Source of the DNA: Candidatus Moraniibacteriota bacterium
GTDB taxonomy: Bacteria > Patescibacteriota > Minisyncoccia > Moranbacterales > GCA-2747515
DNA: 64,000 nucleotides
NCBI GenBank assembly: GCA_046116545.1
Contig: CP175956.1
Location: 321,734-385,733, forward strand
Reading direction: 5' to 3'
Shown: positions 3,110 to 49,820 of the stretch, one piece after another
How positions within the stretch are numbered: position 1 is the stretch's first letter
How the letters are laid out: each line of letters opens with the position of its first letter
The notes under the pieces: model-generated
The model's input: only the letters and a program-made list of their open reading frames with translations
Database searches by the model: none
Told to the model about the DNA's origin: nothing
Translations under genes and position numbers: made by a program

Positions 3110-3201
3110 CGTCTTTGCGAGGAGGTACGACGAAATATTCTCTATAAGTTTTATATAATCTGTACGAGATTGCCACGTCGACTACCGTCTCCTCGCAATG
3201 A
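3110..3201. repeat. MITE-like element, family GTCWTTGCGAGGAGGTACGACGAA...(TIR), copy 1 of 4
   Basis: Left end GTCTTTGCGAGGAGGTACGACGAA, right end reverse-complement GTCATTGCGAGGAGACGGTAGTCGACGTGGCAATCTC; homologous copies at 6469-6586, 29231-29333 and 58297-58389 (inverted orientation). Sits between sufU and sufT and overlaps the spurious N-terminal extension of ORF 3170..3517. Confidence 0.7.
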
Positions 3202-3214
3202 CACTAAAAATATC

Positions 3215-3517
3215 ATGAAAAAAGATAAGAACTTAATAAAAAAACTAGACGCAGTCATTGACCCTGAATTAAACATCCCCATAACAGAAATGGGTCTAAT
3301 TTATGGTGCCGAACAAATTGATACTGAAAATATTAAAATCACTATGACACTCACAACAATAGGATGTCCCCTATACGAAGTGATTCATGATGATATTGTA
3401 CGTGTATTAAAAGAAGATAAAAATATCAAAGAAGTGAAAATAAAGCTAACCTTCGACCCACCATGGTCCCCAGAAATGATGACCGACAGTGCAAAAATGG
3501 AAGTTGGACTTTTGTAA
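3215..3517 (+). CDS. sufT: SufT-like Fe-S assembly protein (DUF59/MIP18 family)
   Basis: MKKDKNLIKKLDAVIDPELNIPITEMGLIY...TMTLTTIGCPLYEVI...KIKLTFDPPWSPEMM matches the DUF59 signature; ATG at 3215 chosen because the upstream extension lies inside the MITE-like copy. Confidence 0.7.
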   Translation: MKKDKNLIKKLDAVIDPELNIPITEMGLIYGAEQIDTENIKITMTLTTIGCPLYEVIHDDIVRVLKEDKNIKEVKIKLTFDPPWSPEMMTDSAKMEVGLL

Positions 3518-3526
3518 AACTTCGTA

Positions 3527-3566
3527 GCAACCAGGTCGCTAAGCCTAACGACTTGGTTGCTTTTTA
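3527..3566 (+). terminator. rho-independent terminator of the suf operon (GCAACCAGGTCG...CGACTTGGTTGC + TTTTT)
   Basis: 12-bp GC-containing stem, 10-nt loop, followed by T5 on the plus strand, 10 nt after the sufT stop. Confidence 0.75.
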
Positions 3567-3662
3567 GATTTTTGTAACCAAAAAAATATATCTTTTTTAT
3601 TACAGACTTATTTTACCAAAACAATTTACTGCCTATAAAAAACTACTATATTTTAAAGACAT

Positions 3663-3686
3663 GTCATACCTGCGTAGGCAGGTATC
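3663..3686. repeat. 24-nt palindromic repeat, family GTCATTCCYGCGAAGGCRGGAATC (variant GTCATACCTGCGTAGGCAGGTATC), + orientation
   Basis: Hairpin ATACCTGC-GTAG-GCAGGTAT; sits 7 nt downstream of the GIY-YIG gene stop; inverted relative to the copy at 3997-4020. Confidence 0.7.
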
Positions 3687-3692
3687 TTATAC

Positions 3693-3977
3693 TCACAGAG
3701 TTTCATATAAATCCTTCCAATAAGGATTCTCTTTTTCTATCAAGTTCACCTTCCATTCCCTTTTCCATTTCTTCAACTGTTTTTCACGCAATAAGGCAGA
3801 ATTAACATCCGTAGTTTGTGCAAAATATACCAATCTGTGCACGAAATATTTTTTTGTAAATCCATCTACAACATTATTTTTATGTTCCCAAACTCTTTTT
3901 TGCAAATTAGAAGTAACTCCAATATACAATATGCCATTTTTCTTACTTGCTAAAATATATACACAATACTGTTTCAT
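3693..3977 (-). CDS. GIY-YIG nuclease family protein (small stand-alone GIY-YIG domain, COG2827-like)
   Basis: MKQYCVYILASKKNGILYIGVTSNLQKRVWEHK... carries the GIY-YIG hallmarks (Y-x-Y...YIG...R...E). ORF track extends to 4022 with a TTG start across the palindromic repeat; the ATG at 3977 is preferred. Confidence 0.75.
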   Translation of the reverse strand: MKQYCVYILASKKNGILYIGVTSNLQKRVWEHKNNVVDGFTKKYFVHRLVYFAQTTDVNSALLREKQLKKWKREWKVNLIEKENPYWKDLYETL

Positions 3978-3996
3978 ATTTATTATCTTACAGAAA

Positions 3997-4020
3997 GATT
4001 CCTGCCTTCGCAGGAATGAC
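3997..4020. repeat. 24-nt palindromic repeat (GATTCCTGCCTTCGCAGGAATGAC), - orientation
   Basis: Reverse complement of GTCATTCCTGCGAAGGCAGGAATC; hairpin ATTCCTGC-CTTC-GCAGGAAT. Confidence 0.7.
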
Positions 4021-4086
4021 AAATCTTAATATTTATCCCTACACAACAATAACCACTTCTAGTAATGAAGCATACTTTGCCCGATT

Positions 4087-4110
4087 GTCATGCCTGCGAA
4101 GGCAGGTATC
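4087..4110. repeat. 24-nt palindromic repeat (GTCATGCCTGCGAAGGCAGGTATC), + orientation
   Basis: Same family; about 65 bp upstream of the previous copy. Confidence 0.7.
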
Positions 4111-4124
4111 TTATATTTGTAAAA

Positions 4125-4580
4125 TTAATTAAAATATTCCTTTAATTTTTCATCAGAATATTCAATTTCACCTTTATTATCAAGTTTTTTTATTTTTTCA
4201 AAATCAGAGGTGATTTTAGAAATTAAAACCTTATTTTTCTTGTTACAATTTGAAATAACAATCTGCTCAGTTTTTCTTCTTATAGTTAAAATTGTGTATC
4301 TCGGTCTTGAACTATAATCCATAATTGTCTTTGTGTTTCTAGAAAATATTTTCTTTTTTAACAACAAAATAGAATTGAAAACAAATGAAGTATTTGAAAC
4401 TGCACTAAAGTAGTCATTGTTTAGCAAGTCAATAACTATTTGAACATCAACAGCACCTGCAACTATTCCATTCGTCCTATTTTTCTCAAAATTCAAATTA
4501 TCTTTTCCAAAAACATCTTCAAATATTTTTATCTCATCCTTATCAATTTTTGGCGTATATATAATATTTAATTTTGACAT
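4125..4580 (-). CDS. hypothetical protein
   Basis: 151-aa ORF, no motif I can assign. Confidence 0.4.
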   Translation of the reverse strand: MSKLNIIYTPKIDKDEIKIFEDVFGKDNLNFEKNRTNGIVAGAVDVQIVIDLLNNDYFSAVSNTSFVFNSILLLKKKIFSRNTKTIMDYSSRPRYTILTIRRKTEQIVISNCNKKNKVLISKITSDFEKIKKLDNKGEIEYSDEKLKEYFN

Positions 4581-4599
4581 ACTATATTAAATTAATTCA

Positions 4600-5109
4600 T
4601 TAACTAACTTTTGTGTCAAAAGCATTATAGTATTCTTTTATACTAGGTATATTTTTACCAATAATATTTTCTGAAAAATACTTTTTATTTTCTAGTTCTC
4701 TTTCAACACTTTTGTCTATATCCTTCCGTTTGTCCCAAATGGTACTGGCTATTTTTGATGAATCCATTTTCGAATCTTGTAAAAAATATTCATTCATTAA
4801 TACTTGCGAAAAATCACTAATCATGACAACTTCATCTTTCAGAGATGAACAAGACTCTGCAGCAATGTAAATTTTTTCGATAAGTCCTTCATCTGCTTGA
4901 ATATACATTTTTGCATTTATCATTCCTGCGATAAATAATAATTCTGCATCACTATCATATTCATCATCAAATTTAATTTTTACAGTCTTATACACATTTG
5001 TTATATTTTTTGGAATTAAATGAAAATTACCACCCCTCAATACAAATAAAAATATTTTCCAAGCTATAAATATTACTAATATTATAAAAATCCCCCAAAT
5101 AAAATTCAT
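4600..5109 (-). CDS. hypothetical membrane protein (N-terminal TM helix)
   Basis: 169 aa; MNFIWGIFIILVIFIAWKIFLFVL hydrophobic N-terminus. Confidence 0.4.
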   Translation of the reverse strand: MNFIWGIFIILVIFIAWKIFLFVLRGGNFHLIPKNITNVYKTVKIKFDDEYDSDAELLFIAGMINAKMYIQADEGLIEKIYIAAESCSSLKDEVVMISDFSQVLMNEYFLQDSKMDSSKIASTIWDKRKDIDKSVERELENKKYFSENIIGKNIPSIKEYYNAFDTKVS

Positions 5110-5169
5110 AATGTTTTTTAAAAAATAAATTATTTTCTACAATTTGTTTTTACGTGTAATAAAGACTCC

Positions 5170-6468: not shown

Positions 6469-6586
6469 CGTCTTTGCGAGGAGGTACGACGAAGCAATCT
6501 CAAACGTGTATACTAAATATAGACTTACACCGATTGCTTCGCTAATCACATAAAATATCACCACTGCTCACAAAGACGCTAGCAGT
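6469..6586. repeat. MITE-like element, copy 2 of 4 (in the ispG/manC divergent intergenic region)
   Basis: GTCTTTGCGAGGAGGTACGACGAAGCAATCTC...GATTGCTTCG...CTCACAAAGAC; nested inverted repeats read from sequence. Confidence 0.7.
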
Positions 6587-16100: not shown

Positions 16101-17040
16101 AAACTATTGCACGATCAAAATGTTTTGCCTTTTTCTCCAACTCACTTGCTTCAGTAAATTGGTTTAAATATTTATTTTTTACATCTTCAGATAAAATGAT
16201 TCTAACCTCATTTTTAATTTTGTTCAGGCTAATATGATTATCTATATCTTTGTTTTCTGGACTATCTTGCAACACACCATCTCGTAATTTTATACTTGTC
16301 ATTGCATGTAACTCATTTGCAATTTTTTCTAATTCTACACTTTGTTTATTTGGACTTTTAATTTTAAATGCATTTTGTTTATTTTCTTTTAATTCTGTCA
16401 ATTTTTCATCCAATCTTCTGTTTACAATATCACTATTATTTGTTGCTTTAATATTTTCAAAATGTTTTTTTACATCTTTTTCTAATTGTGCTATTTCATT
16501 TTTTAAGATAACTACCTCTGTTTTTACATCCAGTCTAATATCTTTCTTTCCTTGACTTGCATCACTATGCACTGCTTTATTCACCATTCCGGATAAACCT
16601 TGCGCTAAATCTTTGTTCAAAGCTTTTTGTGCTGTTAACTGCCTCACACTACTATTATTTTTTACATTTTCTTTTAGAGTCTTTATAACTTTATTCAATT
16701 CACTATTTCTAAATCCACCCTCCTCCCTCATCTCATCTCTTATACTATCCCAAAAAATATTTTTATCTTCATTCTTTTTTAGTGTTTCTTGGTACAAATT
16801 AATAGTTTTAATTAAGTGTTGTGAAATTAATTCTTGCTGTTGCGTTGTCAAATTTTCTGCATTGATAATATCAATATTCTCAACTGCAACAACACTATCT
16901 CCATCTTTTATTCGTTTTTCTTCAGCTTCTTCAGCTTTTTGAAAATCACCATCATTAAACTTCAAAGAGTTGCCCGTATCTTGCATAGGATTACTTCCCT
17001 TCAATCCATTTTTCAACATTTCTTCTTGCGATATTCCCAT
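13132..17040 (-). CDS. giant (1302 aa) coiled-coil-rich protein with central Gly-rich TM segments and a LysM-like segment
   Basis: Long uninterrupted ORF; extensive K/E-rich heptad-like stretches; hydrophobic glycine-zipper region ALSGALLVAGLATGAGTGAAVFGGMAFAKRALGAGVLGTGVTAG; LysM-like GDTLWGII. Confidence 0.6.
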   Translation of the reverse strand: MGISQEEMLKNGLKGSNPMQDTGNSLKFNDGDFQKAEEAEEKRIKDGDSVVAVENIDIINAENLTTQQQELISQHLIKTINLYQETLKKNEDKNIFWDSIRDEMREEGGFRNSELNKVIKTLKENVKNNSSVRQLTAQKALNKDLAQGLSGMVNKAVHSDASQGKKDIRLDVKTEVVILKNEIAQLEKDVKKHFENIKATNNSDIVNRRLDEKLTELKENKQNAFKIKSPNKQSVELEKIANELHAMTSIKLRDGVLQDSPENKDIDNHISLNKIKNEVRIILSEDVKNKYLNQFTEASELEKKAKHFDRAIVSISNRIVREEIEFDDITEYVNDILSNGAVYSTINIAVDKHGGKKNKEQKNMKSETSQNNAKDQTEQKESQEYKPQSAADIVNSASVEEIADILKQKDTKNIDNNLAEINDELSDIKKRVSDMESTLKASTKDMGDKGATTQEDVDKLLKRQETVTKNKDELNAQKELLKKRELISEFVHKNASIDVANKEKELGEMRDEIANIDERIASGQNYESKQAFGAEDLAADKNAVLIKKRDALENDIKRVEVLVQQGKKAKEILEKAGIVVEEIQEENEVEIDSEVNERGLEVVRNEEKDIIEGEGNEMKQIEYDGFKEGAKKIESESNLEELQELLDDARRLYTRTHYKSEGMVNKIKAAFGHINTDKDRDVVSMRDDYQKALNNFRNAKLDSLEGLSEEQKKDAMIELKIFDLNEKINLYSDRVAVKVEKYPRAGKMALKVIESYKGWDTKYKIALSGALLVAGLATGAGTGAAVFGGMAFAKRALGAGVLGTGVTAGFEARAQHKEGNDITKSLDAFKEMDLEQQLASLKGYDEDSFKILEKEFHGKIAGRSRRVLYGLGATAAMLSTGYIGKMFAGGVVDENITANIPPKEVVLESDTSIDTSVYESDVVVEESLPESTVVESTIAEEIGSDVELMEVSVGVKSGDTLWGIIKNQLETNSQLAGMTQDQQTMAIDELKDKFAAMSSENLKGIGFESGDIHKIYPGNNLNLTSVMGSTETIQNAIETGQNFDGILATESITPELGDVKPGGSEDIVGLNGENTAVSGDEINITEPGNAGTQANAEMIAASIDMEKRSLMENMYPGVDYESLISKNAGQFMNEDEKFLQFVEESETIRQENGGGIVKSGETVGQYLDRMLAVEQSEGDVANMQPESSAEASVEFDFNSLTPTESKLFAEQMADMFKDNLGNGQNFSEILNMPIYSTGNLQGTFSENFFTFEQNAMNVLNYDSDVDNYLTVQGDESVKSFYKRLAQIAKEQGKFNEVFSYSA

Positions 17041-17070
17041 TTTATTTTTATAAATTTAATATTTCATTTT

Positions 17071-17142
17071 TATGGTATAATTATAGCATATAATAATACT
17101 TACATAGAAACAAAATGGACAAAAATAATAAAATTATACATT
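17071..17142. repeat. duplicated 72-bp segment (promoter plus first 9 codons of the GT39-like gene); remnant copy
   Basis: About 85% identical to 19158-19229; contains TATAAT-like box and a truncated ORF ATGGACAAAAATAATAAAATTATACATTAA (MDKNNKIIH*) paralogous to MNKKNKIIHF of ORF 19203. Confidence 0.6.
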
Positions 17143-17159: not shown

Positions 17160-19136
17160 TTATAAAGAAGCAATAAAATCTTCTTGTTCTTGAATCGTAC
17201 TATCTAATTCTCCCAGACGTCGAAATGTTCCTTTACCAAAGGTGCTGTCAATTAATTTTCCAATTGGAATTATATTACCTGTCATCATACTTTTTACAAA
17301 AACATCAAAAACATCTTCCCTATCTTTAAATGAAGATTTCTTTTTTTTATATATTTTATCGATAATTGTATTCAAAACATGTCTTTCTGTCTCATAAGAA
17401 AGTTTTTGTGTAATTATATCCGGATGAACTCCCATCAATCTCCTTTTTATACTCTGTAATATATTTTCATCTTGAATGGTTGCATATACAGTATCATCAT
17501 CAACCACAGGAACATTATTACTACCTACCACGTCACAATACTTTTTTTTAATCTTCTCAGTTTGTTTTAATTCTTTCTCGAATAAACTATTATGAGAATT
17601 TTGTGAAACAAATCGCTTTGTTAGCTCTTCTGTTAATGCCTCATTTAAATTTACAAAAAACCTTGACTGTCCATCTCTTGAAACTACTTCCAAACCAGTT
17701 CGATAGCTACTTATAATTGGATCAGTTTCTTTTGTGAGCTGTAAAGCTTGATAAGCTTTGAAATGGATTATTTCATGAAATACTACCTGAGCAAATTCAA
17801 TATTAGATTTTTGCTCTTGTAAGGCTACTGCTTGAAAATGCGCACTAAACACTCCTGAACAATCATTTCTATGTTCTGGCCATTTTTCAGCAGGAATGAC
17901 ATGTATATTTTGTGATGGAATATCAAACTCATCCAACCCTTGTTCAGGTCTAATTTTATTAGTCACCTCATTTACAAGAGAAATGATTTGTAATTCCTTC
18001 TCTGTTTTTTCTCTTTCCTTATCTTGCAAATCATCAAAAACTTGATTATTATTAAATACTTCCTTCATGTCCCGAAAAATCTTTTTTCTCTCTAAAGGCG
18101 ATTTAAACCCTACCATGCGATCAATTGAAGATTCTTTTTTATCATCAAGGGTATTATTTTGAAACTCTTGATATAATTTACCAGAAACAACCTTATAACT
18201 ATCATCATCAATCAAGTTTTCAAATGAAAAAATATTTAATATTTCAGAGCTACCTTTTATTTCTAGAATTAAAAAATCTTCCGCTGGATTTTTCATTGCT
18301 ACATATTTTTTTATTTTAAACCCATATTTCAAAGGGCTGTTTCCTACCAGGATATTTGATGTATTGTTCTTTGCGTTTATACAATATGCATCATTCAAAT
18401 TTATATCATATTTTTTCTCAAATTCACGTTCACGTTCCATCTGACTTTGTTCATCACGCTGATTTTCAATCAAATCTCCTTCCGTTTCTTCAGTATTTAT
18501 TGTATCTTTAACAACTTTTTTTTCTTCCTTTACGTCTTTTTCATGACCTTTTTCATTATTCTTAGAAATCTCAATTTCTTCTAGTTCCTTTTCTCTCTCA
18601 TATCCAACACCAACCCAAAGGTTTTCAAATTCGTATTTTGTTATTTGTTTCTCTTCCCCATCCTTTTCTATTACTATATAGTCATCTTCTAGGTATTCTT
18701 CTGATACATATTTTTGTAAGATGAATCCATCAACTGGAAATTCATCTTCATATTTTATATAATCAGCATCAACTCCATATTTTTTTTCAAATTCACGTCG
18801 TCGATTCATTTGATATGGTGTTTCTTCTTTTTCAGACTCAGATTTACTTTTTTCTTCAAGTTTTATATCCTCTTCAATTGATTTAATACCAATAGATTCT
18901 TTAACTTTCTCAATTTTTGCATCTATTTTTTCCTTTTCTGTTTCTTTTTTTTCAATCTTTTCCATAACCTGTATCTTTTTTTCTTCAGCTCTTTTTTTAT
19001 CCATTTTTGCATATAATTCATTCTCACGCACTAAAGAAGCCTCCGATTGACTGATTAATTTGCCTTCTTCAGATTTATTGCGCACCTCTTGTGCTCCTGC
19101 AGCAACCTCTTTTCTAATCTTATCCCAATCTTTCAT
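17160..19136 (-). CDS. coiled-coil protein (658 aa) with a C-terminal-half HExxH motif (possible zincin-like domain)
   Basis: K/E-rich N-terminal half; FAQVVFHEIIHFKAY contains HExxH; otherwise uncharacterised. Confidence 0.5.
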   Translation of the reverse strand: MKDWDKIRKEVAAGAQEVRNKSEEGKLISQSEASLVRENELYAKMDKKRAEEKKIQVMEKIEKKETEKEKIDAKIEKVKESIGIKSIEEDIKLEEKSKSESEKEETPYQMNRRREFEKKYGVDADYIKYEDEFPVDGFILQKYVSEEYLEDDYIVIEKDGEEKQITKYEFENLWVGVGYEREKELEEIEISKNNEKGHEKDVKEEKKVVKDTINTEETEGDLIENQRDEQSQMEREREFEKKYDINLNDAYCINAKNNTSNILVGNSPLKYGFKIKKYVAMKNPAEDFLILEIKGSSEILNIFSFENLIDDDSYKVVSGKLYQEFQNNTLDDKKESSIDRMVGFKSPLERKKIFRDMKEVFNNNQVFDDLQDKEREKTEKELQIISLVNEVTNKIRPEQGLDEFDIPSQNIHVIPAEKWPEHRNDCSGVFSAHFQAVALQEQKSNIEFAQVVFHEIIHFKAYQALQLTKETDPIISSYRTGLEVVSRDGQSRFFVNLNEALTEELTKRFVSQNSHNSLFEKELKQTEKIKKKYCDVVGSNNVPVVDDDTVYATIQDENILQSIKRRLMGVHPDIITQKLSYETERHVLNTIIDKIYKKKKSSFKDREDVFDVFVKSMMTGNIIPIGKLIDSTFGKGTFRRLGELDSTIQEQEDFIASL

Positions 19137-19162
19137 GTAAAATTCAAAAATATAAATTTATG

Positions 19163-19168
19163 ATATAA
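19163..19168 (+). promoter_or_regulatory. candidate -10 box (TATAAT) about 35 nt upstream of the 19203 start
   Basis: Sequence GATATAATTATAACATATAATAATACTTAC in an AT-rich divergent intergenic region; conserved in the duplicated copy at 17071-17142. Confidence 0.3.
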
Positions 19169-19202
19169 TTATAACATATAATAATACTTACTTTAAAATA
19201 AA

Positions 19203-20765
19203 ATGAACAAAAAAAATAAAATCATACATTTCACAATACTTGCAATCATAATAATATTAGCTATAACTGTACGAGTATGGAATATTGATACTGTTCCTAG
19301 TGGCATATACCCTGATGAAGCAAATAACGGCACAAATGCCTACGATGCTCAATTAACTGGTGATTATCAATGGTTTTACCCTGATAATAATGGTCGTGAA
19401 GGACTTTATCTTAATTTGATGGCTATTACATTCAAATTTTTTGATGTTAGCATGTTAACCATCAAAATTCCTTCCATTATCATGGGAGCTCTTACCGTTG
19501 TTGGTGTATATTTACTTTCTCGTGAATTATTTATTTCAAAACCACGATTAGCACTTATTGCCAGTTATCTCACAGCTGTTAGCTTCTGGGCCATAAATTT
19601 TTCTCGCATTGCCTTTCGCGCAATAATGATGTTACCAATTTTAACTTTTTGTTTTTATTTCATATTTCGTGGTATTCGCACAAATAAGTGGTGGAACTTT
19701 GCACTTGCTGGATTTATTTTTGGACTTGGATTTCATACTTATATTGCCTTTCGCATTGCACCCGCATTATTATTTGTCATATTCATCTTACTATTACTAC
19801 AATATGGGATTGTATTGTTCAAAAAATACTGGAAAGGCGCTCTTATATTTATATTATTTGCAGTCCTTAGTGCTGCACCAATATTTTATACATTCCACAC
19901 ACATCCAGAATACTTAAATTCTCGAACGGGTGATGTTTCTGTATTTGCAAATAGCGAAGATGGACTTGTATCTACATTAACAACAACTGTTTCAGCATCA
20001 CTGTTGAAATTTAATTTTTATGGTGATCAAAATTGGAGACACGGATTTCCACCAACGCCAACGCTTGAAAGTTTTGTTGGCATCATGTTTGTAGGAGGTC
20101 TATTACTTTCAATTATTATATTTCTAACTTATTTATATCGTAGATTTTTCAAAAAAATTCATAATAGAAAATTAGTAACACATGGATTATTGATTGCCTG
20201 GTTCTTTGCATTTCTAGCACCCGAGTTTCTCACAACTGAAGGACTTCCTCATTCTTTGAGATCAATAGGGGTTTTACCTGTTGTTTATATATTTGCAGCA
20301 TTCTTTATAAATTTCATCATAGAGCGCTCAAAAAAACATTCACTTATTACTTATAAGATCACACTAACACTTATGGTTATACTGATGTTAACTTCAGGAA
20401 CCTGCAATGTTTTGAAATATCATAAATATTGGGCAACCTCTCCGCTACAAGCACAAGCCTTTAATAAATCACTTACTGATATAGCAAATTATATAAAAAT
20501 CATTCCAGATGATGCTACTAAATATGTTGTTGCTGGCCCTCTAGAAAGACTACCTGTAAAACTACTAAATGAATCTACTTCAAATTTATATTTTCTATAT
20601 GAAGATGAACTACATAAAATAGATAACACAAAAGATTTCTATGTATTTTTACCAAACAAAAATGATACTGTCTTAAATGAAATATTAAATTCTTATTCAA
20701 TTGTTTTAGAAGTTGTCCCCAGCGAATTAGAAACTGAATTTTTAATATTAAGACATATTCAGTAA
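19203..20765 (+). CDS. polytopic membrane glycosyltransferase, GT39/GT83 (PMT/ArnT)-like
   Basis: 520 aa, more than 10 predicted TM helices, N-terminal loop with GIYPDEANNG (DE motif) as in dolichyl/undecaprenyl-phosphate-sugar-dependent transferases. Confidence 0.65.
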   Translation: MNKKNKIIHFTILAIIIILAITVRVWNIDTVPSGIYPDEANNGTNAYDAQLTGDYQWFYPDNNGREGLYLNLMAITFKFFDVSMLTIKIPSIIMGALTVVGVYLLSRELFISKPRLALIASYLTAVSFWAINFSRIAFRAIMMLPILTFCFYFIFRGIRTNKWWNFALAGFIFGLGFHTYIAFRIAPALLFVIFILLLLQYGIVLFKKYWKGALIFILFAVLSAAPIFYTFHTHPEYLNSRTGDVSVFANSEDGLVSTLTTTVSASLLKFNFYGDQNWRHGFPPTPTLESFVGIMFVGGLLLSIIIFLTYLYRRFFKKIHNRKLVTHGLLIAWFFAFLAPEFLTTEGLPHSLRSIGVLPVVYIFAAFFINFIIERSKKHSLITYKITLTLMVILMLTSGTCNVLKYHKYWATSPLQAQAFNKSLTDIANYIKIIPDDATKYVVAGPLERLPVKLLNESTSNLYFLYEDELHKIDNTKDFYVFLPNKNDTVLNEILNSYSIVLEVVPSELETEFLILRHIQ

Positions 20766-29110: not shown

Positions 29111-29230
29111 ACAGCTTTTATCAATCTTTAACTTGCAACCTTGCTTAAATAATAGACAAAAAAATCCTATTTGTAAACAAAATACCTTGTAATCCCTCAC
29201 ACACTCAAACAAGCCTCCAAAAAAAAGTGC

Positions 29231-29333
29231 GTCATTGCGAGGAGGTACGACGAAGCAATCTCTGTCAGATTATTTATAAACTTTTGAGATTGCTTCACAT
29301 AATACAGCAATCATTACTTCTGTTCGCAAAGAC
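29231..29333. repeat. MITE-like element, copy 3 of 4
   Basis: GTCATTGCGAGGAGGTACGACGAAGCAATCTC...GAGATTGCTTCAC...TTCGCAAAGAC. Confidence 0.7.
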
Positions 29334-29503
29334 TGGTTGTGTGTTTTGTTTAGATCTGTGAGAGTTTGCAATAACTTGACAATAGAAATTATAATGTTAT
29401 TATCACATCATGAATAATAGATTGATGGCAATTAAGCAAGGCAAGCGAATCGAATTTTTCGAGAGAAGTTTGTAGTGCTTTTGTTTCAATCAACAACCTT
29501 ACA

Positions 29504-45720: not shown

Positions 45721-47103
45721 TTACATTTCAACTTTTATATTATTGCTATAAGTGCCACATTTACCTCCTTTGTAAATACAAACTCTGAAATAATAGGTTT
45801 TATCATCACTCAAGTCTTTCCATGTATATTTTCGTGTGTCTCCGTCAGATAAGTATTTGTAATCGTCTCCTGGATATACTGGATTTTTACTTTTTGACTT
45901 TACGACTTTAAATCCTTTGGGAGCACTCCCACCTGATATATCCCATTTTAATTTAACATCATCTCCGTCTTTACTAGCACTAAGAGATACTTTGCTTGCA
46001 TATCCATCATCATTGTCATCACCACTATCTCCACTTGGAGTATCCACGTATACATCATTACTATATATGCCACATTTGCCATCTCCTTGGTAAGCACACA
46101 CTCTGAAATGATATTTTTTACCAGTATCAATTTTCCATTTATAATCTCGTACTCCACTATCTGACAGATATTTGTAATCATTTCCTGGATAAACTGGATT
46201 CACCTCTTTTGATTTTATAACTTTAAATCCGTGACCTGTATTAACGCCACTAGTATCCCAATGTAATCTCACTCCACTACTAGATTTTTCACCTGATAAT
46301 TTAATTGTGCCTGTTGTATATACTTTTTCATCTTCTTCTTTTTCTTTTTTCTCTACCTTCTTTTCTTTTTCTTTTTTTATTTCTTTATTATCACTCTTGG
46401 CTATATTCCAAGCAACAAAGTCATCTTCCAGATCCTCTTGAGTTAGATTTTCTTTTTCAACTTTTCCATCCTTCACACTTGCCTTACTGCCCTCTGAAAT
46501 TTCTTCTATTATTTCTTCATTATCATTTGTTACTTGTACAGAACTCTCTACAACCATCACATCAACTTCACTACCATCATTTTCTACACTAAATTCAGTT
46601 CCAAGTGCAGTTACTGTATATTCACCAGTTTTTACAGAATATTCACGTTTATCATTTTTTGCAACCTTGTTATATACAAAGCCTCTGTCCATACCAATAT
46701 CTATATTTCCTCCACTACCATCAAATAATATAGATGTATTTTCATCTAATCTAACAGTGCTTCCATCTTCAAATGTAACTATCGCCCTACTGTCTGCAAG
46801 AGTTCTTATTTCCTCTCCACTTTTTACGATGTCACTTTTTTCTACCTTAAACCATCCTAAATCTTTATTACTTCTTTTTTCAACACTTCCTTCTAAATAT
46901 TCAATTTGACCATTGTACTCTTTTTTTTGTACGATCTGTGCCATTGATTTATTAGTATTCTCAACAATTTTGTCCATTTGTGACACTTCTTTATTAAATG
47001 ATATAAACCCATTCCATATGAGCACAAAAGATGTCATCACAACCAATCCAATTACGACTACTGTAAATATTCTTCGTCCTTTTTTTTCGTAAAAATCTAA
47101 CAT
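45721..47103 (-). CDS. membrane-anchored protein with FecR-like domain and two tandem about 90-aa C-terminal repeats
   Basis: 460 aa; N-terminal TM; AIVTFEDGSTVRLDENTSILFDG (FecR-like); duplicated module ...YKWKIDTGKKYHFRVCAYQGDGKCGIYSN... / ...YTWKDLSDDKTYYFRVCIYKGGKCGTYSN... Confidence 0.5.
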   Translation of the reverse strand: MLDFYEKKGRRIFTVVVIGLVVMTSFVLIWNGFISFNKEVSQMDKIVENTNKSMAQIVQKKEYNGQIEYLEGSVEKRSNKDLGWFKVEKSDIVKSGEEIRTLADSRAIVTFEDGSTVRLDENTSILFDGSGGNIDIGMDRGFVYNKVAKNDKREYSVKTGEYTVTALGTEFSVENDGSEVDVMVVESSVQVTNDNEEIIEEISEGSKASVKDGKVEKENLTQEDLEDDFVAWNIAKSDNKEIKKEKEKKVEKKEKEEDEKVYTTGTIKLSGEKSSSGVRLHWDTSGVNTGHGFKVIKSKEVNPVYPGNDYKYLSDSGVRDYKWKIDTGKKYHFRVCAYQGDGKCGIYSNDVYVDTPSGDSGDDNDDGYASKVSLSASKDGDDVKLKWDISGGSAPKGFKVVKSKSKNPVYPGDDYKYLSDGDTRKYTWKDLSDDKTYYFRVCIYKGGKCGTYSNNIKVEM

Positions 47104-47113
47104 ATTTTTAAAA

Positions 47114-47992
47114 TTATTTCTGAGAAGCTAATAATGCACTTCTAACTGAACAGTTCATATCCCTTTCATACAGAGGTCTATCATCAATATCATAGATTCC
47201 TACAGCATCCTCAAACACTTCACGTCTATCGTGAGCATACAAAACACCAAGTGGAAATTTTTCTTCTTCGATTGCTTTTGCAAATGCCTTTGCTCTATCA
47301 CTTTTATCATAATCATCTTCCATGTAATAAGTTCGTTCTTTGAACCACTGATATGTATTCACTTTATTAAATACTACACATGCTTGGAAAATATCAACAA
47401 GTGAAAATCCTTTGTGCTCAATAGCTTGTTTTATAATGTCTTGTGTTTCTTTTGGATCACCTGCATTCGCCCTTGCTACAAAAGGTGCATCCAGAGAGAT
47501 TGCAAGTGCAACAGGATTAATAGGCTCATCTATTACTCCCTGTGGTTGTGTAGGTGTAACTAATCCTTCTTGTGAAGTTGGAGCTGCCTGACCTTTTGTA
47601 AGTCCATAAATCATATTGTCATGCACAATAACTGTAATGTTGGGATTTCTACGAATTGTATGTATAAGATGATTTCCACCTTCCCCGTATACATCTCCAT
47701 CGCCACTTGTCACTATCACAGTTTGTTTTGGATTTGATGCTTTAATTCCTGTTGCTACAGGTAGTGCTCTACCATGCAAGCCATTGAAAAAATTTGCTTT
47801 AAAATATTGTGGTAATTTTGCTGCTTGTCCTATTCCAGAAACAAGTGTTATATCTTTTGGTTCAACGTCAATATCTTGCATAACTTTTTTCAAAGTTTGC
47901 AAAATAGGAAAGTTTCCACATCCAGGACACCATTGATTTTCAACTGATGCTGGAACATTAAAATCTTTTTTTGTTTGTGATGCTGTAATCAT
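47114..47992 (-). CDS. korB: 2-oxoacid:ferredoxin oxidoreductase beta subunit (TPP-binding)
   Basis: 292 aa; WCPGCGNFPIL and TSGDGDVYGEGGNHL TPP-binding motifs. Confidence 0.85.
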   Translation of the reverse strand: MITASQTKKDFNVPASVENQWCPGCGNFPILQTLKKVMQDIDVEPKDITLVSGIGQAAKLPQYFKANFFNGLHGRALPVATGIKASNPKQTVIVTSGDGDVYGEGGNHLIHTIRRNPNITVIVHDNMIYGLTKGQAAPTSQEGLVTPTQPQGVIDEPINPVALAISLDAPFVARANAGDPKETQDIIKQAIEHKGFSLVDIFQACVVFNKVNTYQWFKERTYYMEDDYDKSDRAKAFAKAIEEEKFPLGVLYAHDRREVFEDAVGIYDIDDRPLYERDMNCSVRSALLASQK

Positions 47993-48028
47993 ATTTTTAG
48001 TATTTTAGTATATTAATTTTACCTACTT

Positions 48029-48052
48029 GTCATTCCCGCGAAGGCGGGAATC
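48029..48052. repeat. 24-nt palindromic repeat GTCATTCCCGCGAAGGCGGGAATC (+ orientation)
   Basis: Hairpin ATTCCCGC-GAAG-GCGGGAAT; in the korB/korA intergenic spacer. Confidence 0.7.
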
Positions 48053-48084
48053 TATCGTACGGTATCAATATAATCTTACGGGAA

Positions 48085-48108
48085 GATTCCTGCCTTCGCA
48101 GGAATGAC
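48085..48108. repeat. 24-nt palindromic repeat GATTCCTGCCTTCGCAGGAATGAC (- orientation); forms an inverted pair with 48029-48052
   Basis: Together the pair (48029-48108) resembles the termini of the GIY-YIG cassette at 3663-4020 without the ORF. Confidence 0.7.
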
Positions 48109-48113
48109 ACCTT

Positions 48114-49820
48114 TTATAAAACATTTTTAATTTTTTCTGTTAATTCCTCAACACTAAACAACTCACCATTCCATTTGAGAATTCTCTTATCAATCTTTCT
48201 TTCACATTCTTTTTCTAATAAATCAGCAAATTGACCCGTTGCATTATTTTCAATAACTATAACCTTATCTGCCTTAGTTATCATTTTCTTTGCATTTTTA
48301 TTCAATGGAAAAACTTGCACGAATTGCACAACACTAACTTCTTTATCATCAATATTTTCCACTGCTTCTGTGATTACGTTTTTATTTGAGCCCCAACATA
48401 CAACAAGTGTTTTAGCAGATTTCTTGCCCATAATTTCTGGCTCTAGAGCAGTATCTTCTAACAATTTCTTTCTTTTGAAATATCTTTTTTCCATCATCTG
48501 CATACGCAAACCATCCATGTCTTCTGTTATGCGACCATGTTCATCATGCTCATCACTATCTGCACAAACTAATCCATCACCAAACCCAGGTACGCTCCTC
48601 GGAGAGATCCCATCATCAGTGATTGCATATCGCTTGTATTCCCTATCAGATTCCACAATATATTTTTGATGTGGTAAAACTGCAAATTCTTCTTTATCAA
48701 TAGTATAAAGGGCATCTACAAAATATTGATCAATGAGAATGAATGTTGGAATTTGATATTTGTCGGCAACATCAAGTGCATGTGCTGCTATTTCATAAGC
48801 TTGAACAGGAGTTCCTGGTGCATAAATTGCTCGTACAAATTCCCCATGACCTGCATACAAGACTAGATTTAAATCTTCTTGTGCGGTTTTTGTCGGCAAT
48901 CCTGTTGCTGGACCAGGCCTCTGAGCGATGTGTATTGTTATTGGTGTTTCAGTCATTGCTGCAAGTGATACAGCTTCACACATAAGTGCAAATCCTCCAC
49001 CAGCAGTTGTGACTATCCCACGGGCTCCTGCGTAACTTGCTCCAATTGTCATATTAATCGCTCCCAATTCATCCGTTGCCTGTTCAACAACAACTCCACA
49101 ATCTTTTCCATGTTGTGCCAAAAATGTTAAAAGTCCAGTAGATGGAGACATCGGATAAGAAGAACAAAAATCCACACCTCCCGCAAGAGCTCCAAACCCA
49201 ACAGCATCAATTCCAGAAATAAACAAATCATCCATCACTCCTTCATCCGTTTCAAATGAACATGTCACATCATTGCTAAATGCAAAGTGTTCTCCCATTT
49301 TATAACCTTTTTCAAGTGCTTCCTGATTTTTTTTAATAATATCTTCACCTTTTTTCATGAAAAATTCTCTCAGATATTCTTTTGGACGATCTATTTCAAC
49401 TCCCATAAGTCCAAGTATTGCGCCTGCTGCTACAGTGTTTGCAAATACTCTATGTCCGATTGCTTGTGCGATATTTATAAAATCAACTTCCATTATACAA
49501 GTTGAACAAAAGTCATTATTCTTAAATCCCAAAAACATTGTGTCATCAGTAAATCGTTTTTCACTATGTTTATATCCATTTGGGTCCAATGGCACAAATA
49601 AATCGATACTAGACTTATAAGCATCTCGTTTTTTACTTGAAATTCTAATAGTAGTAGAGTTCATTCCACCTCGAACACGAGACATATATTCTTTTGTAGC
49701 AAATACATGATAACCTTCACGCTTTAGCACATGAGTCAAAATATGAGAAACACTCTGAATTCCCTGACCAGCCTGACCTGCAATAACCAACGAGAAATCA
49801 TCTTTAATATGTCGTGACAT
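48114..49820 (-). CDS. korA: 2-oxoacid:ferredoxin oxidoreductase alpha subunit (with N-terminal gamma-like domain)
   Basis: 568 aa; N-terminal VIAGQAGQGIQS gamma-domain motif, then pyruvate-flavodoxin/ferredoxin oxidoreductase core (GYPITPST-like MSPSTGLLTFLAQ). Confidence 0.85.
   Translation of the reverse strand: MSRHIKDDFSLVIAGQAGQGIQSVSHILTHVLKREGYHVFATKEYMSRVRGGMNSTTIRISSKKRDAYKSSIDLFVPLDPNGYKHSEKRFTDDTMFLGFKNNDFCSTCIMEVDFINIAQAIGHRVFANTVAAGAILGLMGVEIDRPKEYLREFFMKKGEDIIKKNQEALEKGYKMGEHFAFSNDVTCSFETDEGVMDDLFISGIDAVGFGALAGGVDFCSSYPMSPSTGLLTFLAQHGKDCGVVVEQATDELGAINMTIGASYAGARGIVTTAGGGFALMCEAVSLAAMTETPITIHIAQRPGPATGLPTKTAQEDLNLVLYAGHGEFVRAIYAPGTPVQAYEIAAHALDVADKYQIPTFILIDQYFVDALYTIDKEEFAVLPHQKYIVESDREYKRYAITDDGISPRSVPGFGDGLVCADSDEHDEHGRITEDMDGLRMQMMEKRYFKRKKLLEDTALEPEIMGKKSAKTLVVCWGSNKNVITEAVENIDDKEVSVVQFVQVFPLNKNAKKMITKADKVIVIENNATGQFADLLEKECERKIDKRILKWNGELFSVEELTEKIKNVL

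Follow-up and report, generated by a model that had tools for sequence, protein, structure and literature searches.

Why does a small nuclease gene stand between inverted copies of a short hairpin in a genome of the Candidate Phyla Radiation (CPR)? We addressed this question for a 64,000-nt stretch of DNA from a Candidatus Moraniibacteriota bacterium (contig CP175956.1, positions 321,734 to 385,733; the whole stretch is called the window below). In it, a gene for a GIY-YIG nuclease is flanked by inverted copies of the 24-mer GTCATWCCYGCGWAGGCRGGWATC, and an inverted pair of the same repeat without an open reading frame (ORF) lies elsewhere in the window. Judged from its sequence features, the locus very probably belongs to the Ssn/SRM system, with an SsnA-type nuclease and its cognate tagged hairpins. 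This is an already published kind of system, not a new kind.

Ssn proteins are 94-aa, single-domain GIY-YIG nucleases (CDD cd10448) that bind the NTS hairpin only as single-stranded DNA (ssDNA) and cleave a single strand, a few nt upstream of the hairpin, as shown for four homologues (PMC11893778). SsnA of N. meningitidis lowers transformation by NTS-containing DNA (PMC11893778). At least one motif is found nearby for 71% of the Ssn homologues, and motifs on both sides for 42% (PMC11893778). The authors noted that NTS-ssnA-NTS resembles an insertion sequence (IS) and raised, as a hypothesis, an analogy with RAYT nucleases and their repetitive extragenic palindromes (REPs); transposition has never been demonstrated for the family (PMC11893778). 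Among tagged REPs, the Neisseria dRS3/NTS repeat (CGTCATTCCCGCGMAVGCGGGAATCYRG) falls in the "CGTC-1" class (PMC3733652). In the literature collection that we searched, no later study of Ssn turned up.

We found five copies of the 24-mer in the window (<=3 mismatches), compared to 0.00 expected from 100 dinucleotide shuffles. The gene and the repeats are arranged as follows:

3693-3977, minus strand: ssnA-like gene for a single-domain GIY-YIG nuclease, 94 aa plus stop codon (Pfam, alignment and AlphaFold2 model)
3663-3686, plus strand: downstream SRM hairpin, inverted relative to the upstream copy, 6 nt past the ssnA stop, with its tagged end pointing away from the gene
3997-4020, minus strand: upstream SRM/NTS-type hairpin, GTCATTCCTGCGAAGGCAGGAATC on the ssnA coding strand, 19 nt ahead of the ATG
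4087-4110, plus strand: third SRM hairpin, with 1 mismatch; it and 3997-4020 make a head-to-head dimer spaced by 66 nt
48029-48108: ORF-less, REPIN-like heads-out doublet, made of an SRM on the plus strand (48029-48052), a 32-nt spacer and an SRM on the minus strand (48085-48108)

Read in the orientation of the gene, the ssnA locus consists of a reverse hairpin, 66 nt, a forward hairpin, 19 nt, the ATG and the rest of the gene to its stop, 6 nt, and a reverse hairpin. The conserved tail of the upstream hairpin (3997-4020) runs to ~3981. As ssDNA, all units form stable hairpins (8-bp stem, 4-nt loop; -7.4 to -8.9 kcal/mol, z -3.6 to -6.0). The pair at 3993-4114 folds at -26 kcal/mol (z = -7.5), and the doublet at 48029-48108 folds into a single long hairpin (-27.5 kcal/mol, z = -8.6). 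This doublet sits between the genes for the beta (47114-47992) and alpha (48114-49820) subunits of a 2-oxoacid:ferredoxin oxidoreductase.

An earlier note on this stretch had described the five 24-mers as hairpins, and their coordinates, orientations and folding are confirmed here. Its placement of the doublet between korB and korA is acceptable as a generic label for the two oxidoreductase genes. It gave the GIY-YIG ORF the right coordinates and family and a length of 95 aa, which is 94 aa plus the stop codon; its spacers of 7 nt (stop to repeat) and 20 nt (repeat to ATG) were each off by one.

The product of the ssnA-like gene has the features of a published SsnA. GIY-YIG (PF01541) matches residues 3-78, nearly the full length (E=5.5e-15), and the catalytic-type residues Y7, Y18, R28, H32 and E65 are invariant in an alignment of 24 sequences. 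Spacings of 11 and 47 residues between Y7, Y18 and E65 equal those of the published catalytic residues Y6, Y17 and E64. The AlphaFold2 model is one compact domain (predicted local distance difference test score 95.3), and the solved folds nearest to it are UPF0213, Slx1 and the N-terminal GIY-YIG domain of UvrC. A sequence search of the Protein Data Bank gave no match, and NCBIfam holds no model specific to this protein. It is 100% identical to a protein from a Candidatus Moraniibacteriota metagenome-assembled genome (MAG). Orthologues that are 69-73% identical occur in remote phyla, including Zixibacteria, Anaerolineae and the gammaproteobacterium Parashewanella. Some homologues are mis-called, and their termini are translated hairpin (e.g., IPAFAGMT, HSRVGGNP, SYPRRRVS). 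The same kind of error can be seen in the window: a 109-aa version of the ssnA ORF (3693-4022) starts at TTG 4022 inside the SRM hairpin, and its SFLRRQES is translated repeat. This version is an overcall, because the longest ORF reads through the repeat.

The hairpins keep the positions that are critical in the published system. In Ssn hairpins, the 3 nt located 5' of the palindrome are critical for cleavage and the C just 3' of it for binding (PMC11893778). The GTC tag, the first A of the stem and the C directly 3' of the palindrome were invariant in 27 distinct copies taken from the window and nine loci (10 sources). The stem covaries: 3 of its 8 pairs change on both sides (23 cells), compared to 0 in slid controls. 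Units were chosen with at least 7 of 8 stem pairs, which biases the percentage of paired positions but leaves the covariation unaffected.

The strict published NTS and SRM patterns recovered 0 of 5 and 1 of 5 copies, respectively, and we therefore supplemented them with a relaxed pattern and a generic tagged-hairpin finder. The copy matching the SRM search pattern (48028-48055, TGTCATTCCCGCGAAGGCGGGAATCTAT; 0.02 matches expected) holds the dRS3 core ATTCCC-N8-GGGAAT and differs from the published NTS at ~2 positions (TGTC instead of CGTC at the start, and A at the last R position). The other four have the stem CCTGC/GCAGG in place of CCCGC/GCGGG, and they miss the SRM pattern only because it excludes this compensated change of a C:G to a T:A stem pair. 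The CCTGC/GCAGG variant also flanks the closely related ssnA genes of Parashewanella and Zixibacteria.

The window units also resemble the CGTC-1 REPs. Both have an unpaired CGTC or TGTC tag, an 8-bp stem starting with AT and a 4-nt loop, and both form head-to-head or tail-to-tail dimers with spacers of 20-100 nt (PMC3733652). They differ in the short tail, which is CTTA, CTTT or CTAT in the window and departs from the CCA consensus; CCAG tails are found in GC-richer relatives. The CGTC-1 study sampled no CPR genomes, judged CGTC REPs to be without a dedicated transposase and made no link to GIY-YIG proteins (PMC3733652).

We found that the hairpin is tied specifically to this GIY-YIG gene family, a preference that the earlier note had proposed to test. 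It adjoins ssnA in all 11 of the ssnA-bearing loci that we fetched. In contrast, there were no true copies in 49 loci without ssnA (~260 kb); these control loci are korB relatives that lack an ssn gene and had been fetched for an unrelated reason. Because it is absent from these ~260 kb, the hairpin is not a general terminator. The arrangement is also conserved: a forward hairpin just upstream of ssnA and a reverse hairpin 1-60 nt downstream were present in 8/8 independent lineages (the window and L004; L008 and L009; L011; Parashewanella, L001; Zixibacteria, L003; Anaerolineae, L182; L187; L190), with stem and loop variants that differ by lineage. In a ninth lineage (L184), the hairpins 8 nt upstream and 4 nt downstream are both forward, and a degenerate reverse hairpin-like sequence lies further downstream.

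In Parashewanella spongiae (L001, 1877-3530), ssnA is surrounded by a ~1.7-kb alternating array of GTCATACCTGC... on the plus strand and GTCACTCCAGC... on the minus strand. The array sits between flagellin genes and recalls the NTS clusters near surface-antigen genes in Neisseria.

By analogy with the Neisseria enzyme, SsnA would bind the tagged hairpin (GTC, an 8-bp stem starting with A, a 4-nt loop and C) in ssDNA, on the tagged strand only, and would cut a few nt 5' of the tag. Because the tags of the gene-proximal hairpins face outward on opposite strands, the predicted cuts bracket ssnA, at ~4024-4027 on the minus strand and ~3658 on the plus strand, as deduced from cut-site mapping in Neisseria. 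Dispersed copies, such as the doublet in the oxidoreductase operon, would be further chromosomal targets, cleaved when they become single-stranded during uptake, replication or repair. The likely role is processing or restriction of motif-bearing ssDNA, either transforming DNA or intermediates of replication and repair. The strand-specific, ssDNA-only cleavage and the effect on transformation come from literature on homologues; the cut positions and the role are what we infer for this locus.

Compared with the published Ssn system (PMC11893778), the locus has the same 94-aa length, single GIY-YIG domain, Tyr/Tyr/Glu spacing and hairpins on both sides, the same core (GTC-ATTCC[C/T]GC-loop-GC[G/A]GGAAT-C) with the positions critical for cutting and binding, and dispersed ORF-less copies. 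It differs in its host, a CPR/Patescibacteria (Moraniibacteriota) MAG with an AT-rich window of 32% GC, in the few copies seen, in the mostly CCTGC/GCAGG stem, in tails of TTA or TTT and not CCAG, and in being known from sequence alone. The published survey covered RefSeq reference genomes and does not mention CPR (PMC11893778).

Several points weigh against assigning the locus to the Ssn/SRM system. The SRM search pattern misses four of the five window copies, and the strict NTS pattern misses all five. In Neisseria, changing the sequence of the palindrome while keeping its structure abolished Ssn activity (PMC11893778), and with the different stem found here, the window enzyme would have to be shifted in specificity relative to the Neisseria enzyme. 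The assignment was made by published features and not by direct alignment to N. meningitidis SsnA or cd10448, and the Ssn biochemistry comes from homologues outside CPR. The hairpin copies seen number five, in 64 kb only.

In this Moraniibacteriota lineage, ssnA behaves as a resident, vertically inherited, single-copy gene, and the ORF-less doublets turn over. In L008, L009 and L011, whose SsnA proteins are 87-94% identical to that of the window, ssnA and its hairpins likewise lie between ispG and the genes for iron-sulfur (FeS) assembly, nifU and sufS; the hypothetical genes next to ssnA differ among these relatives. The upstream hairpin has the same position and orientation in all three, the downstream hairpin is kept 1-8 nt past the ssnA stop in L009, L011, L187 and L190, and a counterpart of the third hairpin (4087-4110) is kept in L008 and L009. 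The ORF-less doublet is absent from the orthologous ~40-nt spacer between the alpha and beta genes of L012, which is the closest relative (KorB 91% identical to that of the window) and stems from the MAG that also contains L009. The whole cassette can also be missing. L193 and L011 are equally close to the window (for L193, IspG is 84%, the FeS-assembly protein 71% and SufS 62% identical). At the syntenic site of L193 the backbone is kept, patatin, hypothetical and Mrr genes replace ssnA, and there are no hairpins. Overall, the cassette has moved or been lost over long timescales, and it has probably spread horizontally.

The interval between the FeS-assembly gene and ispG (3518-5169 in the window) is a variable slot across the window, L009, L011 and L193. 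In the window it contains ssnA and two hypothetical genes of 151 and 169 aa, neither with a family match. L009 has ssnA next to a gene of 276 aa, L011 has only ssnA, and in L193, which lacks ssnA, the slot is taken by patatin-like, hypothetical and Mrr restriction genes. In L011, a ~190-nt insert (3806-4000) lies between the upstream SRM and the start of ssnA. With its long inverted repeat (ccatcctcaactaaccact ... agtggttagttgaggatgg), this insert could represent a further small element; ssnA is called there from a later start (89 aa).

The earlier note had read the locus as a mobile cassette with derivatives resembling miniature inverted-repeat transposable elements (MITEs). We consider it possible but rather unlikely that the SRM-ssnA-SRM unit is an active, or recently active, autonomous transposable cassette and that the ORF-less doublets are MITE- or REPIN-like derivatives mobilised in trans. 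The inverted-hairpin architecture is IS-like, and doublets are gained and lost among close relatives, as that reading expects: this part of the proposal stands. The doublet is missing in L012, and the cassette with all its SRMs is missing in L193. Flank-anchored pairwise alignments show doublets of a second repeat family (family B, see below) in some close relatives and not in others, with the flanks conserved. SsnA is 69-73% identical across phyla, compared to only 53-57% for KorB among many Moraniibacteriota, and between the window and L011 it is better conserved (88%) than its neighbours (IspG 80%, FeS-assembly protein 69%, SufS 63%). The genomic contexts of ssnA vary by lineage, and GIY-YIG proteins are among the listed genes that a groundwater study found to be exchanged by horizontal gene transfer between Patescibacteria and other bacteria. 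The doublet also carries the 16-nt leader/tail of the ssnA-proximal unit: the extended tail common to that unit and 48069-48116 is 88% identical over 48 nt (family D14). However, this shared tail could be part of an extended repeat unit and not the sign of a deletion derivative. Other observations speak against an active cassette. There is one ssn copy in the 64-kb window; position and flanking hairpins are unchanged in relatives down to 87% SsnA identity despite changed neighbours, so that a single-copy gene with conserved synteny, which the earlier note had named as a finding against mobility, is what we found; and no target-site duplication was seen by eye around any unit. GIY-YIG enzymes act by hydrolysis and are not known to transfer strands or to form covalent intermediates. 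The only activities demonstrated for the family are ssDNA cleavage and restriction of transformation (PMC11893778). We therefore do not class the locus as an autonomous IS (one copy in the window, the same locus in relatives, no target-site duplication), although the cassette is absent from a sister lineage.

Two further explanations were considered. The hairpins might act mainly on RNA, as terminators, attenuators or mRNA stabilisers like classical REPs, with the adjacent nuclease a secondary matter. We find this improbable. Units 3998-4017 (minus) and 4090-4109 (plus) do score as weak terminator-like sites, copies are found 3' of genes, in the spacers between them, a strong RNA hairpin would form from the doublet of the oxidoreductase operon, and such functions are documented in the REP literature. 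In contrast, the stem includes neither the tag nor the 3' C, and yet both are invariant across phyla, which a structural RNA hairpin would not need; the suf operon already has its own terminator; a strong terminator between the co-transcribed alpha and beta genes would be harmful; and SsnA does not bind RNA (PMC11893778). The absence of the hairpin from the ~260 kb of loci without ssnA counts against an RNA role as well, and on this ground the "ubiquitous terminator hairpin" that the earlier note had considered was ruled out. Still less credible, and in our estimate very improbable, is that the gene encodes a housekeeping YhbQ/UPF0213-type nuclease for DNA damage, or a homing endonuclease, with no connection to the repeats. 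UPF0213 is the nearest solved fold, E. coli YhbQ is also a single-domain GIY-YIG protein of ~100 aa with weak similarity (E=2e-6), and NCBIfam gives a weak match, far under its cut-off, to a group I intron endonuclease. However, identity to YhbQ is 23%, compared to ~70% for hairpin-flanked orthologues in other phyla, so that a YhbQ orthologue was ruled out. We know of no tagged hairpins flanking YhbQ genes, and the hairpin association of ssnA is specific. A homing nuclease, which the earlier note had offered as an option, does not fit: ssnA is an intergenic, free-standing gene without an intron or intein, its product has no DNA-binding domain beyond GIY-YIG, and its characterised relatives cut ssDNA only. 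An I-TevI-like homing endonuclease was rejected on the lack of an intron or intein and of a C-terminal DNA-binding domain, together with the sub-cut-off NCBIfam match.

Within the Ssn/SRM assignment, the pattern seems closer to that of a domesticated nuclease of the RAYT/REPIN type than to that of an active IS. As in RAYT/REPIN systems, a single-copy, largely vertically inherited nuclease gene (judged here over 64 kb) stands between inverted hairpin copies, dispersed doublets fold into long hairpins and vary among relatives, and the target is an ssDNA hairpin with a short unpaired tag. Unlike RAYTs, which are HUH/Y1 (IS200/IS605-like) enzymes, the nuclease here is a hydrolytic GIY-YIG enzyme, the tag is CGTC and not GTAG, and mobilisation by the ssnA nuclease is a hypothesis only. 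We tentatively raise, as a rather unlikely reading, that SsnA is the GIY-YIG counterpart of a RAYT, its cuts in ssDNA driving the copying or loss of REPIN-like doublets and, in the long term, of the cassette itself, across phyla including CPR. A mobile cassette coincides with the published hypothesis (PMC11893778) and is unproven, as is the notion that the nuclease itself drives doublet turnover.

Our results place an Ssn/SRM pair in a Moraniibacteriota (CPR) genome; the value added is modest. The CCTGC/GCAGG stem variant, which the published pattern misses, tracks one highly conserved, cross-phylum Ssn clade. The comparative evidence of a positionally stable gene and turnover of ORF-less doublets bears on a question left open in 2025, namely whether Ssn serves its repeats as a domesticated mobilising nuclease (PMC11893778). 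If SsnA does act like a RAYT, hairpin-directed mobilisation of ssDNA would be carried out by a hydrolytic GIY-YIG nuclease and not by HUH or DDE chemistry. For biotechnology, every new Ssn/hairpin pair is a candidate site-specific ssDNA cutter of distinct specificity.

The window contains a second repeat family, family B, in three ORF-less heads-out doublets of 90-115 nt (3110-3199, 6469-6579 and 29230-29344). The left arm is GTCWTTGCGAGGAGGTACGACGAAGCAATC, and the right arm is degenerate and inverted. The unit consensus is CGTC-ATTGC-GAGGA-(short variable inner stem and loop)-GACGAA-GCAAT-C-CAG. Family B has a CGTC tag, a stem starting with AT and a 3' C in common with NTS, and the published SRM pattern does not match it. 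No stable ssDNA hairpin is predicted for a single unit. We scanned metagenomes for the family (120 loci, 649 kb) and found it widespread, at 28-70% GC, with an inner stem that covaries. An Ssn-like ORF was present in 2 of the 120 loci, 564 and 1351 nt away; one of these genes (L086) is flanked by units of the ssnA-associated type. Clustering of the ORFs within 1 kb of B units in the 120 loci gave no recurrent partner gene. We did not assign family B as a target of this SsnA, because the 120 loci showed no gene association (no adjacent Ssn or recurrent gene) and a single unit has no stable fold. These orphan CGTC-tagged repeats might be mobilised in the way proposed above for the SRM doublets. 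A family B repeat also affects gene calling: the 115-aa FeS-assembly ORF (3170-3517) starts inside it, with PRRLPSPRND encoded by the repeat; the true start, ATG 3215, yields a protein of 100 aa.

The spacers that hold the SRM and family B doublets in the window are hot spots where several families of repeats settle in CPR genomes. In relatives, these spacers hold unrelated elements that are hairpins or inverted repeats (e.g., CCCTCTCCCTGAGGGAGAGGG..., GTAGAGACGCATTGCAATGCGTCTCTAC), as in L008 (1256-1396), in L009 (4662-4806) and upstream of korB in L013 and L016. The terminator of the suf operon (3527-3567) is a classical intrinsic terminator after the FeS-assembly gene, made of GCAACCAGGTCG, a loop, CGACTTGGTTGC and a T run; our scan missed it because the loop is 10 nt. 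Two other direct repeats were seen in the window, a ~315-nt internal duplication (45765-46230) within the ORF at 45721-47103, and a 108-nt direct repeat of 78% identity (17035-17142 and 19123-19230) on either side of the gene at 17160-19136.

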